IMG/VR virus record: IMGVR_UViG_3300028283_000495
DNA from: a virus
DNA: 64,000 bases
Reading direction: 5' to 3' (one strand)
Shown here piece after piece: positions 54,081 through 64,000 of the stretch (its first letter is position 1; every line of letters begins with the position of its first letter). The translations under genes were made by a program, and so were the position numbers. The notes beneath the pieces were generated by a model. That model did no database searches. It had not been told where the DNA came from and was given only the letters and a program-made list of their open reading frames with translations.

Positions 54081-54361
54081 TAAATGGTCTTTACGATATT
54101 GATTATTGTTCCTAGGAAATCTTTAATCCAGTTACCAATGAGGGAACCACTCCAAAGCGGAAAAAACAAAATTACAATAATTAAAATGAAAAGCAAAAAC
54201 TTTTTTATATTTTTTCTATTATTGTGCCAAAACAAGATTAGATTAAATGGTCTCTTAGCTGGATCTTTTATTTTTCTACCATCGTGAATATTCATAAGAT
54301 TCTGGTTTTGTTGATTATATATTAAAAGACGAAATAAGTTTTCAAAATGTTTCCCAAACAT
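54080..54361 (-). CDS. small membrane protein
   Basis: KKFLLFILIIVILFFPLW. Confidence 0.55.
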   Translation of the reverse strand: MFGKHFENLFRLLIYNQQNQNLMNIHDGRKIKDPAKRPFNLILFWHNNRKNIKKFLLFILIIVILFFPLWSGSLIGNWIKDFLGTIINIVKTI

Positions 54362-54830
54362 TTTCCAAACATTTTCTGTTAATCACTTGGCACATAGTGA
54401 ATATACATTTCTTACCGTTAAGTTCTATAACTGAACCACTAAATAAACCTCTGAGTTTCTTCCCCTTTATAGATCTAAATGGTATCGTAATATTTTTGAA
54501 AAATTCCCCCTCTTTTATAACACCGTACATTTTGTCTTTAACCTCTTTATCTATTATACCGTGATTGAGCACGGAAGTATCATGTCCAATTACTTGATAT
54601 TTATTATCTAACTCTATAATCTTAACAAAAGCCTCATTAACATCTATTATTATATTAGTTTCGGCGTCAGCTATAGCCATAGGACAAGGATTAAGATCAA
54701 AAATTTTAAAGAATTTTTCTTCCACAATCCTTAATTCATCAGCAGTACATTTTAGTTCTCTTTCTACGTATTCTTGTTCTATAACAATACCCGATGTAAT
54801 TAGCTCTTCATTATGATTAATTAATTTCAT
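54342..54830 (-). CDS. stand-alone PAS-domain protein
   Basis: FFKIFDLNPCPMAIAD...IIDVNEAF...VIGH...RSIKGK..RGLFSG.VIELNG. Confidence 0.75.
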   Translation of the reverse strand: MKLINHNEELITSGIVIEQEYVERELKCTADELRIVEEKFFKIFDLNPCPMAIADAETNIIIDVNEAFVKIIELDNKYQVIGHDTSVLNHGIIDKEVKDKMYGVIKEGEFFKNITIPFRSIKGKKLRGLFSGSVIELNGKKCIFTMCQVINRKCLENVWETF

Positions 54831-55971: not shown

Positions 55972-56290
55972 AAACAAAATTGAATACGAAGTGTTTGAGT
56001 TTGATGAAACCGAACAAGACTACGAAGTTCGTATCATAGAAAGATTTGATTACGCTAAAATTAAAAGAGTCTATGATACTTACACTAACACTTACTATTT
56101 TAAAAGAGGTGAAGCACATAACGATTACGGACCAGCAATGGTAGCTGAAGCAACAGGTCCAGTCTATTACAGATTTGGAGATAAAGTAAAAGACGAAGAG
56201 TGGAAAGCTTATTATCGCACAATGATAATGGATAGAATGTTAAATAGTGACGAATTTCCACCAAAACCAAAAAAATTAGAAGACGTATGA
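55949..56290 (+). CDS. HNDYGPA-motif protein with C-terminal tag
   Basis: AHNDYGPAMV; EWKAYYRTMIMDRMLN. Confidence 0.7.
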   Translation: MKQYKEVENKIEYEVFEFDETEQDYEVRIIERFDYAKIKRVYDTYTNTYYFKRGEAHNDYGPAMVAEATGPVYYRFGDKVKDEEWKAYYRTMIMDRMLNSDEFPPKPKKLEDV

Positions 56291-57753
56291 AAAAATTAGA
56301 ATCCAGATCGAAAAAGAAAATAATTGAATTTTTATCAATAGACCCTATATTTAATGTCTATACTAGAAAATATATGGACTATCTCATCATTAAAAATGAT
56401 CTGAGAATGATATATATTGTTGACTTTGAAAGAATTGGAAAATTAAATTCAGAAATTGGATACGAAGAAGTTAACAAGAAATTTAGAAATATTTTCAAAA
56501 AGAAAATAGATGGTTGTTATATTGGTAGATTCTTCTCTGGTGACGAATTAATAATAGCTTTTGATAATGATTGGGAACAAAAAGATTGTAAAAACGCCAT
56601 TAAAAAAATTAGGAAAAAAGCTAGAAAAGAAGGATTGAATTTTAAATGTCTTCACGTAGGATTGAGTAATAAATCTGGTGGAACTAGTGGTATGGATGGC
56701 GGACATAAGGATCATACTATTGATTGGGCAAATAAATTAAATAGATTAAAACATAAAGTCTTACCTATGAAATCAGAAGATTTGCGTAATATAGGTTTTT
56801 ATACTCTTTCTGATTATAGGGCTATGAAAACTAATATTGATTCTGATATGCAAAGAGGTGAAATTATAATTACTGAGTATTGTAATTTTAAATGTCCTTA
56901 TTGTAGAGGTCTTAATGATGAAATTTATAAAGACAGGAAGTTCAAACAACTCACTCTTGATGAAGTTAAAGAGATAATAGATTTATGGAGCCCACTATCT
57001 AATATAAGATTTTCGGGCGGTGAGCCAACTCTTCATAAAGATTTACTTGAAATGGTTAAATACGCAGCTGATAGCGGAGTAATGAGAATAGCTATATCTA
57101 CAAATGGAACAGCCGATTTGGATTATTATAAAAAATTAATAGAAGCTGGCGTTAATGATTTCTCGATCAGTTTAGACGCTTGTTGTATTTCAGACGGTAA
57201 TAAAATGTCTGGGGTTGAAGATTCATGGTATAAAGTAGTTTACAATATACGTGAAATTAGTAAACTATCATATGTAACAGTTGGTGTAGTTTTAACGCCA
57301 GATAATGTAGAATCTTGTATTCTAACTGTAAGATTCGCTCACGAATTAGGAGTATCTGATATTCGTATAATTTCAGCTGCCCAGTGGAACGAAAAAATTG
57401 CAGGATTAGATTTAATAGAGAACGAAATACTCAGTGAACATCCAATTTTAAAATATAGGGTAGAACATTTTAATAATGGCGTGAATGTTAGGGGATTATC
57501 TGAAACGGATAGTAAGAATTGTGGTATTGTTATAGATGATAGTATAGTAGCTGGTCAAATGCACTTTCCTTGTGTAATTTATATGCGTGAAGGCGGACAA
57601 CCTATCGGTAAAGTTGGACCCAATATGAGACAAGAAAGATTTGATTGGTTTAAGAATCATAACTGCATTGAAGACAAAATATGTAAATCTCAATGTTTGG
57701 ATGTGTGTAGGGATTATAACAATAGGGTAAAAAAATTACAACCAGATTTATGA
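56287..57753 (+). CDS. GGDEF-like domain fused to radical SAM enzyme
   Basis: IVDFERIGKLNSEIGY...RFFSGDELII; CNFKCPYC, RFSGGEPTLH, STNGT, C-terminal Cys cluster C..C...IC...CLDVC. Confidence 0.8.
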   Translation: MKKLESRSKKKIIEFLSIDPIFNVYTRKYMDYLIIKNDLRMIYIVDFERIGKLNSEIGYEEVNKKFRNIFKKKIDGCYIGRFFSGDELIIAFDNDWEQKDCKNAIKKIRKKARKEGLNFKCLHVGLSNKSGGTSGMDGGHKDHTIDWANKLNRLKHKVLPMKSEDLRNIGFYTLSDYRAMKTNIDSDMQRGEIIITEYCNFKCPYCRGLNDEIYKDRKFKQLTLDEVKEIIDLWSPLSNIRFSGGEPTLHKDLLEMVKYAADSGVMRIAISTNGTADLDYYKKLIEAGVNDFSISLDACCISDGNKMSGVEDSWYKVVYNIREISKLSYVTVGVVLTPDNVESCILTVRFAHELGVSDIRIISAAQWNEKIAGLDLIENEILSEHPILKYRVEHFNNGVNVRGLSETDSKNCGIVIDDSIVAGQMHFPCVIYMREGGQPIGKVGPNMRQERFDWFKNHNCIEDKICKSQCLDVCRDYNNRVKKLQPDL

Positions 57754-61193: not shown

Positions 61194-62330
61194 ATGCAGC
61201 GACATCTCTTTAAACTAAGCAAACAGAACAAGATATTACACTACGTTGTTCAAGTTATAGATAATAAAACTAGTTCTCAACTAGTTACAGATAAAGGGCA
61301 ATTTCTAGGAGCCTACCAGTCTGATACAAAAGAATTTGTGATTGGTAAAAATGTTGGTAGAGCCAACGAAACTACACACTTTCAGCAAGCTATATCAGAG
61401 GCTGATTCCAAAGTAAATAAACAAAAAGACGAAGGTTATAAATTATGGGATGGTGATCTTGTTCCAGGACCAAATGTAGCAAAAGAAATTTTAGAATGGC
61501 TTACAGATCAAGGCAAAGGCACTGACGCATCTGGTGATTTAAAACCAATGTTGGCACACAAAGATTTAAAAAGTATCAAATTTCCATGTCTCATTCAAAG
61601 AAAATATGACGGAATTCGTTGTTTCAGTAAAGTGAATGGTGGAACCACAATGAAATCTAGAAACGGAAAAGATTTCAACTATCTTCAACACATTATGAAT
61701 GATTTAGGATTAAATTTCACTAACTGTATTGTTGACGGTGAACTTTATTCTAATACACTCACTTTTCAGGAAATACTTTCAAGTGTGAAGAGGGAACAGG
61801 CTTCTAATAAACTTATTTCTTTACGTATTTATGACGTAATTCCACTTGATAATCTTAAATTAAAACAATCAGAAAGAGTAAATTTACTTAATCTTAAACA
61901 AGATTCTACTTGTCTTCACCCAGTTGAAACTTACACGGTTAACAACATCGAAGAGGTTAAAGTGTATTTTGCTCAATTTATTGAAGAAGGGTACGAAGGT
62001 GCTATTCTTAGGAACCTTAACGGTGAATACGAATTCGGTGGAAGGTCTAGGGATCTTATTAAATATAAGGAATTCGATGATGATGAATTCGAAATCGTTG
62101 ATGTTATTGAAGCAAGTGGTAGGGACGAAGGAACTGCTATTTTTGTAATGTGTAATAAAAACGATCAAATCTTCAACGCTAGACCAAAAGGCACTAGGGA
62201 AATTAGAAGGGAATATCTTTTGAATAAAAAAGAACTGATTGGAAAAATGGGAACTGTACAATATCAAGGTCTAACTGACGACGGTGTGCCTCGCTTCCCT
62301 GTTTTCAAGTGTGTGAGGGATTATGAATAA
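61194..62330 (+). CDS. ATP-dependent DNA ligase with WGR-like N-terminal domain
   Basis: QRKYDGIRC (I), VDGELY (III), YEGAILR (IV), RSRDLIKYK (V), OB fold PRFPVF. Confidence 0.95.
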   Translation: MQRHLFKLSKQNKILHYVVQVIDNKTSSQLVTDKGQFLGAYQSDTKEFVIGKNVGRANETTHFQQAISEADSKVNKQKDEGYKLWDGDLVPGPNVAKEILEWLTDQGKGTDASGDLKPMLAHKDLKSIKFPCLIQRKYDGIRCFSKVNGGTTMKSRNGKDFNYLQHIMNDLGLNFTNCIVDGELYSNTLTFQEILSSVKREQASNKLISLRIYDVIPLDNLKLKQSERVNLLNLKQDSTCLHPVETYTVNNIEEVKVYFAQFIEEGYEGAILRNLNGEYEFGGRSRDLIKYKEFDDDEFEIVDVIEASGRDEGTAIFVMCNKNDQIFNARPKGTREIRREYLLNKKELIGKMGTVQYQGLTDDGVPRFPVFKCVRDYE

Positions 62331-63129
62331 ATACTACATACCAACGTACAGAGAATGCTTAAGAATTACAAAATCATTTCCACCAAAGACTTTCTACGAA
62401 ACTAGAAGACTCTACGATGATTATAAATTCTCTTTCTTTAATTATAGATTAGCCGAATATAAACAATTCAGAGAAGCTAACGCCTTTGAAATGAAAGGTA
62501 TAACTTTTCTACATCACGAAGGCGTTACTACACATTCTTTAATGTTTAATAAATTCTGGGAACTTAATCAGTACCCAGAATTTAACTACGATCTCTTTAA
62601 AGATAAAAAAATTAAAAAGGTCATGGTGAAAGAAGACGGTAATCTTATATCCTTTATAAAATTACCAGACGGTAGAATAATATCTAAAGTTAAAGAAGGT
62701 TTTAAATCTATCTTTAATAAGACTGCCAACCAATTCATACAAGATAATCCTATCTATTATAAATTCATAGAGTATTGTATTGATAATGATATTGTTCCAT
62801 TATTTGAATTAGTTGGGGAGAACAGGATTGTTTTGAAGTACGATAAGAATGATTTGATACTTTTAAATTTAAGGAACAACTTAACTGGTGAGTATATTGA
62901 TTATTTGGATTACGATTTAGAAGGTATTAATATAGTTAGAAATGAGAACCATAGTCTTGATGAATTAGTGGAGTTAGCTAAAGAGAAAGAATATTTTGAA
63001 GGTTGGGTAGTGCAGTTCGAAGACGACACTCTTTTAAAGGTAAAGACACAATGGTACTATGATTATACTGAGTTTTTACTTGATAAATTTAATATGAAAA
63101 GGAAGAAAGAGAATCAATCAAATATGTAA
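62323..63129 (+). CDS. T4 Rnl1-like RNA ligase (catalytic domain only)
   Basis: KFWELNQ, VKEDGNLI (I), FELVG (III), EGWVV (IV), KVKTQWY (V). Confidence 0.85.
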   Translation: MNKYYIPTYRECLRITKSFPPKTFYETRRLYDDYKFSFFNYRLAEYKQFREANAFEMKGITFLHHEGVTTHSLMFNKFWELNQYPEFNYDLFKDKKIKKVMVKEDGNLISFIKLPDGRIISKVKEGFKSIFNKTANQFIQDNPIYYKFIEYCIDNDIVPLFELVGENRIVLKYDKNDLILLNLRNNLTGEYIDYLDYDLEGINIVRNENHSLDELVELAKEKEYFEGWVVQFEDDTLLKVKTQWYYDYTEFLLDKFNMKRKKENQSNM

Positions 63130-63545
63130 TTATCAATCTCTTGATAAATGAATCTTGTTAGGTTATCTAAATTCTCTTCTGAAATATAATCCTTGTAATC
63201 TAAACCAACTAAACCTATAACGTAATCTCTAATATCGTCAAGAGGTGGGAGTATTGTACCATAACTTTTTGCAGCTATCTGTTTTTCAAACCATTCCATA
63301 GATTTTTCAACTATATCTTGATATTCGAGAAGTCCCATGAGTGTAAGTTTTTGGTAATTTATATGGAGTATCATTGAATCAGATTGTTTATCGTAATCCC
63401 AAGCGTTATCTATTCTACCTTCTTCTCTACATCTATATTCGTCCATTGGTTGGTCGTCGTCCCAATAGGATTCGAAAACTTTTTGATTGAATTTACCGTC
63501 AACGTAGAAAGCCTTTTCGAATTTTTCGTAATTTTTAATTGGCAT
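63114..63545 (-). CDS. hypothetical protein
   Basis: IKNYEKFEK N-terminus; AATATATA upstream. Confidence 0.6.
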   Translation of the reverse strand: MPIKNYEKFEKAFYVDGKFNQKVFESYWDDDQPMDEYRCREEGRIDNAWDYDKQSDSMILHINYQKLTLMGLLEYQDIVEKSMEWFEKQIAAKSYGTILPPLDDIRDYVIGLVGLDYKDYISEENLDNLTRFIYQEIDNYIFD

Positions 63546-63619
63546 TAAGAGATTATAATTTTCTACTATATATTAAAAACTTAAATCGGATTTTATTCTA
63601 TATAAATAAAAAATCGTTT

Positions 63620-64000
63620 ATGATAAGAATATACGACTGTTCTAATTCACCCGAGAGTGAACACGGAAGAGATTACGGTCCAAAAGAAAATGATATAATT
63701 AAAAGTTTAAAAGAGTTTGCTAGGACTTTTGATAGTAAGTTTGTAAATAGTATGGCAGACGTTCTAATAACAAACGATATATTTCCCAGTGAATTAAGAG
63801 ATATAGATATGCCTAAGATTAAAAGAATGGATGGTATATACTGGCACAACGAACAAAAACATAAAAACGATCAACTTAACGCTTCAGCAGAAATATCTGA
63901 TCACGTTATATTTATATCAGAATTTAGTAGAAAAGCTTTAACCACACTTTACCCAGACATTAGAATTAAATCTTCATCTGTTATTCTTAACACAGCAGAT
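63620..64000 (+). CDS. GT-B (family 4-like) glycosyltransferase, 3'-partial (not in track)
   Basis: Hand translation ...KIKRMDGIY...SDHVIFISEFS...VILNTAD; TATAAATA (T4 late-type) at 63601. Confidence 0.6.
   Translation, partial: MIRIYDCSNSPESEHGRDYGPKENDIIKSLKEFARTFDSKFVNSMADVLITNDIFPSELRDIDMPKIKRMDGIYWHNEQKHKNDQLNASAEISDHVIFISEFSRKALTTLYPDIRIKSSSVILNTAD

Follow-up and report, generated by a model that had tools for sequence, protein, structure and literature searches.

The window analysed here, 64,000 nucleotides of the virus record IMGVR_UViG_3300028283_000495, which derives from a giant, uncultured phage, contains a reading frame that appears to join a GGDEF-like domain to a radical SAM enzyme. 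This raises the question of whether the fusion is real and, if so, what two such activities might do together in a phage.

A GGDEF-like domain fused in frame to a radical SAM enzyme

The frame comprises 488 codons and overlaps the neighbouring genes by 4 bases at both ends (Table 1). It was proposed to be an in-frame fusion in an earlier, sequence-only reading of this DNA, and all of the motifs quoted there are indeed present in a single frame. That reading also called for a search for the same fusion in other phages, and we found three further fused, full-length homologues with the same two-part layout: P0002 (94% identical), P0003 (83%) and P0004 (72%). The concern that homologues might always occur as two genes is thus answered by these three proteins. 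P0002 was found in LR756503, a 735-kb Mahaphage genome in which the gene order downstream of P0002 is the same as that in the window, and also in an independent Logan contig; together with P0003 and P0004, these two occurrences rule out an assembly artefact. The fusion is real and is maintained under purifying selection. The dN/dS values against two relatives were 0.10-0.12 for residues 1-125, 0.02-0.03 for residues 126-160 and 0.04-0.10 for the radical SAM half. Fusion is rare, however, as most relatives are separate genes, and it is limited to one small clade.

Table 1. Features of the fusion gene and of two downstream genes in the window (all coordinates refer to the window)
Feature	Coordinates	Strand	Evidence
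Fusion gene, minimal GGDEF-like domain plus radical SAM enzyme, 488 aa	56287..57753	+	One open reading frame; fused homologues; dN/dS
Minimal GGDEF-like domain, VN subfamily, residues 1 to about 156, no sensor domain	56287..56754	+	AF2 model, fold search, Atlas, profile match to solved cyclases
Asp46 (first metal), Asn54 (base-binding), Gly58-Tyr59, Val62-Asn63 (Gly-Asp in cyclases)	56422..56475	+	Alignment to DgcR and DosC
Arg81 and signature SGDEL, residues 84-88; one extra residue before the signature	56527..56550	+	Alignment, conservation
Glycine-rich loop and terminal helix, both part of the GGDEF unit	56674..56751	+	Equivalent in stand-alone P0122; helix 142-155 in the model
True fusion junction and Met161	56755..56769	+	Alignment to stand-alone relatives and to the other fusions
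Radical SAM enzyme, 328 aa, phage-specific family, SPASM/Twitch-like C-terminus	56767..57753	+	PF04055, 79 bits; homologues
Radical SAM cluster motif C199/C203/C206	56881..56904	+	99-100% conserved in 109 relatives
Candidate auxiliary Fe-S ligands C412, C429, C466, C470, C474; invariant D417/D418 and R434	57520..57708	+	97-100% conserved in 109 relatives
T4 Rnl1-type RNA ligase, recurrent neighbour of the radical SAM family	62323..63129	+	Clusters with PF09511 ligases
Start of GT4-like glycosyltransferase, partner family; cut by the window end	63539..64000	+	Same family fused to VN-GGDEF in P0155

The glycine-rich stretch SGGTSGMDGG (residues 130-139) had been taken for the inter-domain linker, an assignment that we reject. 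The stand-alone relative P0122 has an equivalent stretch plus the subsequent helix, which places both within the GGDEF unit and the true junction at about residues 157-160. The suggestion that an internal methionine is an ancestral start was upheld only in part. Met161 does align with the start of the stand-alone relatives, but it is missing at this position from P0003 and P0004, and thus a conserved internal start is unsupported. Because most of the neighbouring genes have no Shine-Dalgarno motif, its absence before Met161 is uninformative.

In the nearest unfused relatives, L210 and L268, the VN gene (the subfamily of the window's GGDEF-like half) immediately precedes the radical SAM gene, and the stop codon of the first overlaps the start codon of the second. 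The two halves are split in L004, where an HNH gene lies between them. The L004 GGDEF sequence groups with that of the fused P0004 (96/96; AU p 0.044 against a fused-only clade), and the radical SAM tree does not resolve the placement of L004. From these trees, one fusion followed by a split and two separate fusions would both fit. The radical SAM gene of L210 is interrupted by one in-frame TAA codon (L210:2516-2518), which could be a sequencing error or a recent inactivation. An insertion of about 0.8-0.9 kb, possibly an intron or a homing endonuclease, splits this gene in L020, in L268 and probably also in L195; HNH and GIY-YIG-like genes often flank the radical SAM gene in other loci.

The DNA of the window is AT-rich. 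A stand-alone PAS-domain gene (54342-54830, minus strand) lies 1.5 kb upstream of the fusion on the opposite strand; no such gene was seen beside the fusion in the related loci. Between 58099 and 59906 on the minus strand, a gene that joins a CoaC-type flavoprotein to an M23 peptidase precedes one for a CoaB-like ligase, an arrangement kept in LR756503. Several small open reading frames between 53548 and 61179 share a similar terminal motif (R-T/S-K-L/M-I/M-D), which suggests a family of C-terminal tags.

The radical SAM half belongs to a phage-specific family

The C-terminal half had been read as a complete radical SAM domain, and the profile search agreed: it scored 79 bits against PF04055 (cut-off 29.5) and has the CxxxCxxC and GGE motifs and a partial TIM barrel. 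The family consists mostly of stand-alone proteins of about 328 residues. It gave 3,220 matches at E ≤ 0.001, the best 120 of which are at least 61% identical, and it is almost confined to large phages. Its members in the Atlas are 97% viral, and among 185,579 genomes searched, close members in MAGs were found on three short contigs only. Among 109 relatives, Glu192 and several arginines are 96-100% conserved, with seven arginines at 96% or above.

With five conserved C-terminal cysteines (Table 1) and whole-length alignment to SkfB, BlsE, PqqE and BtrN, the radical SAM half resembles the SPASM/Twitch subgroup, but there was no match to PF13186. As judged from their conservation, these cysteines may hold an auxiliary cluster. 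In the fold ranking, SkfB (Z 18.0), BlsE (17.8) and PqqE (17.5) came first, and DesII, MoaA and BtrN were also present. Nucleoside enzymes and peptide maturases are tied in this ranking, and the fold does not single out a substrate. BlsE was the top Foldseek match (E 2e-9), at 17-19% identity; the score against the curated BlsE HMM was 39.9 bits (cut-off 400).

Assignment to MoaA, viperin or QueE was rejected. Against MoaA the score was 86.8 bits (cut-off 284), there is no Mob_synth_C domain, and Glu192 occupies the site of MoaA Arg17, although the arginine that precedes GGEP in MoaA is kept. Viperin and pVip were excluded by a score of 47.5 against NF038283 (cut-off 180) and by PADLOC matches that span the N-terminal core only, and QueE by a score of 42 against TIGR03963 (cut-off 260).

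The GGDEF-like half keeps its metal ligands and departs at the guanine-reading position

The AF2 model of the N-terminal half (pLDDT 96) confirmed that it is GGDEF-like. Its best structure match had a Z score of 13.0 and an rmsd of 1.9 over 112 aligned residues. In a wide structure search the top 32 rows were all GGDEF domains, a Foldseek search gave E 5e-6, LapD and FimX were among the close matches, and other palm domains reached Z scores of about 8 or less. The doubt whether the N-terminus adopts the GGDEF fold is therefore removed by the model and the structure search. By sequence, the domain alone had no match in Pfam, PHROGs or PADLOC, and the fusion protein fell below the PF00990 gathering score (23.8 bits); a weak match to PleD was seen (E 0.0013). 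Among its relatives, 59 of 88 aligned members match PF00990 at E ≤ 0.1, and P0157 scores 30.2 bits. A profile search placed 214 clusters in this VN family.

Conservation in the VN family is high at Asp46, Asn54 and Ser84-Glu87 (94-100%); D46 and N54 are each at 99%, D86 and E87 at 100%, and all metal ligands at 99-100%. The last position of the signature, Leu in the window protein, is Ile in 76% of the family. The departures from canonical cyclases are Val62-Asn63 for Gly-Asp, Tyr59 for His, Gly51 for Lys and the one-residue insertion before the signature. Position 63 is Asn in 81% of the family and Asp in 18%. The canonical lysine position is Gly51 in the window protein and mostly His in both of the GGDEF subfamilies described below, and hence catalysis may be weak or different. 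Of the residues that mark an active diguanylate cyclase, the guanine-reading Asp is replaced by Asn63 and the catalytic Lys by Gly51; nor is Asn63 the Ser or Thr that Hypr domains carry at the Watson-Crick position. The residue at this position of GacA reads the Watson-Crick face, and an Asp there confers GTP specificity (PMC6456294). We infer that, with Asn63 in place of the guanine-reading Asp, the base choice is probably altered. The family also retains an Asp-x-x-Phe-Gly...Arg turn that matches the cyclase dimer region; the domain may dimerise.

GGDEF and radical SAM genes are linked in large phages

In a forward survey, 75 distinct viral loci were chosen by their radical SAM gene and the neighbours within 6 kb were recorded. 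The recurrent neighbours were a 90-aa protein (26 loci), a minimal GGDEF protein (20), Rnl1/RtcB ligases (17) and a GT4-like glycosyltransferase (9). A second subfamily of about 140 residues, the GD type, accounts for 17 of the 20 GGDEF neighbours; it has a canonical GH..GD guanine site and an AGDEF signature (Pfam 39 bits, cut-off 23.8).

Loci were also fetched by the VN domain alone (38 clusters at 70% identity). In this reverse search, which was seeded with a narrower VN alignment and is biased towards members bearing that signature, a radical SAM gene of the same family lay within 2 kb in 25 of the 27 clusters of the window's VN clade (25 of 26 informative ones); the exceptions were one truncated contig and L006, which has no radical SAM gene. 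None of the 11 clusters of the sister VN clade has one. Among the sister-clade loci (L026, L226, L229 and L252), L226 and L252 resemble temperate-phage or mobile-element regions. For the GD type, a radical SAM gene was present within 8 kb in 24 of 24 close loci, most of which had seeded the query; L186, L187, L188 and L195 had not.

The two subfamilies did not occur together: of 109 distinct radical SAM enzymes, 33 are paired with the VN type and 18 with the GD type, none is paired with both, and each type is found in at least two parts of the radical SAM tree. Adjacency of the VN and radical SAM genes holds both upstream and downstream, and across enzymes that are about 50% identical, while other neighbours turn over. 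The trees of the two halves are correlated (Mantel rho 0.46) and the GC content of GGDEF-bearing loci is lower (0.30 versus 0.40), but both observations are confounded by kinship and are not independent support. A search that included a positive control found three phage records, each at least 90% complete, that carry the radical SAM gene but neither GGDEF type anywhere, and two further records with the enzyme but no VN type. Because the radical SAM gene often occurs without any GGDEF gene, the cyclase-like gene is accessory.

These results give strong genomic support to the functional link that had been suggested between the halves: the adjacency is conserved, two GGDEF subfamilies are interchangeable, and further fusions exist. 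The two mechanisms suggested for the link, control of the radical enzyme by a nucleotide signal and synthesis of a modified signal, would both be candidates. As dozens of other large phages carry both genes next to each other, the two probably serve a joint pathway, one that, as far as gene content can tell, would make, modify or respond to a nucleotide signal.

Other partners and further fusions

A 449-aa fusion of a VN-GGDEF domain to the GT4-like glycosyltransferase (P0155) lies directly behind the radical SAM gene of L175, with which it forms a compact cassette (L175:1705-4034). In two other loci the radical SAM enzyme is fused to the 90-aa partner (L047:1845-3089 and L051:5995-7239). GT4 loci have a radical SAM gene within 8 kb in 15 of 19 cases. 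The 90-aa partner had no convincing match in Pfam, PHROGs or PDB, and the GT4 partner has no close solved relative.

Three further observations concern the neighbourhood. P0157 and its relatives (L230, L235-L238, L245 and L247-L249) carry a conserved domain of about 150 residues, with invariant His and Arg residues, in front of VN-GGDEF; the gene for this fusion comes immediately after the radical SAM gene. In L009, L014, L029 and L033 another recurrent protein, of about 195 residues and with no PHROGs match, is encoded between the radical SAM gene and its partners. An apparent fusion of RtcB to the radical SAM enzyme in L067 was rejected, as the RtcB gene is of intein-bearing size and merely adjacent: lying immediately before the radical SAM gene, it encodes an RtcB of 828 residues that contains an intein-like insertion (L067:3509-5995).

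Discussion

Comparison with known systems places the two halves at some distance from each of their nearest relatives. The N-terminal domain shares with GGDEF diguanylate cyclases (PF00990; DgcR, DosC, WspR, PleD) the fold, the metal Asp, the base Asn, the Arg and the S/G-G-D-E signature. It differs from them in the substitutions and the insertion described above, and in being shorter, devoid of a sensor domain, phage-encoded and tied to a radical SAM gene. Like the Hypr GGDEF protein GacA, which makes 3',3'-cGAMP (PMC6456294), it has lost the guanine-reading Asp and kept the Asp at the motif centre, but it has Asn rather than Ser/Thr and no receiver domain.

In having a minimal, regulator-less cyclase in a small operon and in its likely place in phage-host conflict, the module is reminiscent of OptS of Panoptes (an mCpol; PMC12657218) and PanS of PanDA (PMC13640721), which belong to bacterial defence systems with a membrane effector. 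However, OptS is nearly without a GGDEF motif and PanS is a DAC, whereas the window's cyclase-like domain is phage-borne and paired with an enzyme. We found no Pfam or PADLOC (2023) match to mCpol or Panoptes and no membrane effector gene among the recurrent neighbours, and the fold matches GGDEF.

The radical SAM half likewise has partial counterparts. MoaA, the GTP 3',8-cyclase, is its best HMM family and shares the radical SAM core, the arginine before GGEP and an auxiliary-cysteine C-terminus, but differs as set out above, and no molybdopterin genes were seen among the recurrent neighbours of the family. In the blasticidin S pathway, BlsE, a Twitch radical SAM enzyme, works with the glycosyltransferase BlsD, a pairing like that seen here; that pathway is not known to include a cyclase, and the gene context is different. 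Some prokaryotic viperins (pVip) occur with nucleotide kinases, and thus also couple or fuse a radical SAM enzyme to a nucleotide-handling partner in phage conflict, but viperins are not known to have the auxiliary cysteines, and the present fusion is phage-encoded with a cyclase-fold partner. By analogy, the system would work most like a minimal cyclase plus a tailoring enzyme.

One possible hypothesis, which we put forward tentatively, is that large phages carry a route in which the minimal GGDEF protein makes a purine dinucleotide and the radical SAM enzyme, sometimes with the glycosyltransferase, converts it into a modified cyclic dinucleotide that serves as a phage signal or as a decoy or antagonist of host nucleotide signalling. 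The window's gene is best read as the fused version of a conserved phage module centred on one radical SAM enzyme. The GGDEF-like half would be a regulator-less cyclase that makes a (cyclic) dinucleotide from a pair of purine NTPs, with a base choice that is probably relaxed or adenine-tolerant owing to the Asn at the guanine-reading position. Because two GGDEF subfamilies interchange in one slot and one of them has a canonical site, the job of the slot would be to make a purine dinucleotide. This product would most simply pass to the radical SAM half, to which the slot is always tied, and the chances are about even that it is either the substrate or the activator of that enzyme. That it undergoes hydrogen abstraction on the ribose or the base is a possibility we hold with reserve, and a role as activating ligand seems less probable still. 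Phages without the cyclase would draw on the dinucleotide pool of the host, and the optional GT4 glycosyltransferase and 90-aa protein would take part in this route, whose likely purpose is to interfere with signalling or defence in the host.

In favour of this route we count the linkage and mutual exclusivity of the VN and GD types, the further fusions, the metal and base residues at 96-100% conservation, the part played by the Asn63 position in GacA, the MoaA-like arginine, the seven conserved arginines, the ranking of BlsE and the predicted Bacteroidetes host discussed below. Against it stand the low proportion of radical SAM loci with a GGDEF gene within 6 kb (20 of 75), the three near-complete records with neither GGDEF type, the sister VN clade without radical SAM genes, the missing canonical Lys, the tied structure ranks and the RNA ligases, which are nearly as frequent (17 of 75). 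Our paper search turned up no case of a radical SAM enzyme working on a cyclic dinucleotide, and to our knowledge none is known.

The host may bear on why such a phage would carry a cyclase. The largest genomes of such phages belong to the Mahaphage clade, for which Bacteroidetes hosts are predicted (PMC7162821); this is also the predicted host of LR756503, the genome closest to the window's fusion. An early census listed no diguanylate cyclase in its four Bacteroidetes genomes (PMC1183210). A Bacteroidetes host without a diguanylate cyclase would explain why the phage brings its own.

Alternatively, the order of the two steps might be reversed, so that the radical SAM enzyme, like MoaA and viperin, would start by modifying an NTP of the host, and the GGDEF-like domain, glycosyltransferase and 90-aa protein would use the product, for example to make a dinucleotide from modified nucleotides. 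The partners are almost never found without the radical SAM gene, which is often alone, and this is the pattern of downstream tailoring; an altered base-reading residue could suit a modified purine, and the best sequence matches are MoaA models. We think that this order is rather unlikely, as the alignment of MoaA Arg17 with the invariant Glu192 indicates that the MoaA-type triphosphate site is not kept, and the GD subfamily, with its unmodified guanine site, fills the same slot.

One could also envision an RNA-repair kit in which the radical enzyme works on broken ends of tRNA or RNA, remodelling or protecting them, and the GGDEF-like palm serves as a Thg1-like end-nucleotidyltransferase or as a signal of the kit. 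Rnl1 or RtcB genes occur within 6 kb at the 17 loci mentioned above, at a distance of about 200 bp or nearer in seven of them; Rnl2-type ligases and RlaP also recur, and the palm domain is common to GGDEF and Thg1 proteins (PMC12657218). This explanation is unlikely, however, given a fold match to true GGDEF cyclases that far exceeds those to other palms (Z 13 versus about 8 or less), the retention of the turn of the cyclase dimer region and the lack of any ligase fusion among the loci surveyed, the ligase of L067 being adjacent only. The ligases may merely share a counter-defence island with the module.

A third scenario is that the genes are co-expressed neighbours with separate jobs, such as a cyclase that manipulates host c-di-GMP, and that the fusion represents read-through that is tolerated where stop and start codons overlap. 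The overlapping codons in L210 and L268, the confinement of the fusion to one small clade, the HNH gene between the halves in L004 and the frequent solitary occurrence of the radical SAM gene would all fit. Nevertheless, mere co-expression would hardly lead two GGDEF subfamilies to occupy the same slot in a mutually exclusive manner, or keep the adjacency on both sides across enzymes of about 50% identity as other neighbours turn over; moreover, the GGDEF domain is also fused to the glycosyltransferase of the module, and the joining stretch is under purifying selection, and we therefore regard this scenario as improbable. Finally, it is very improbable that the VN domain is catalytically dead and, by sensing ATP or GTP, exerts allosteric control over the radical enzyme. 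The lysine, glycine and aspartate of canonical cyclases are absent, the signature is preceded by an insertion, and the close fold matches LapD and FimX are cases in which degenerate GGDEF domains serve as sensors. However, the metal ligands are all 99-100% conserved, most members exist as proteins of their own, and the canonical GD type can take the place of VN.

Our paper searches, mostly outside subscription journals, found no description of the module or of a GGDEF-radical SAM pairing in phages. What appears to be new, judging from gene content, is thus the GGDEF-radical SAM gene module; its parts would be new variants of known families, and the chemistry of the two-step route is a proposal. 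Cyclic-dinucleotide synthases are enzymes of bacterial signalling and defence, and phages degrade or sponge the signals that they make. Should one half act on what the other half makes, the module would represent a new kind of radical chemistry, carried out on a second messenger, and a strategy new to phages. If the halves are not coupled in this way, the fusion still provides a one-protein test case and a substrate shortlist for an uncharacterised family of radical SAM enzymes.
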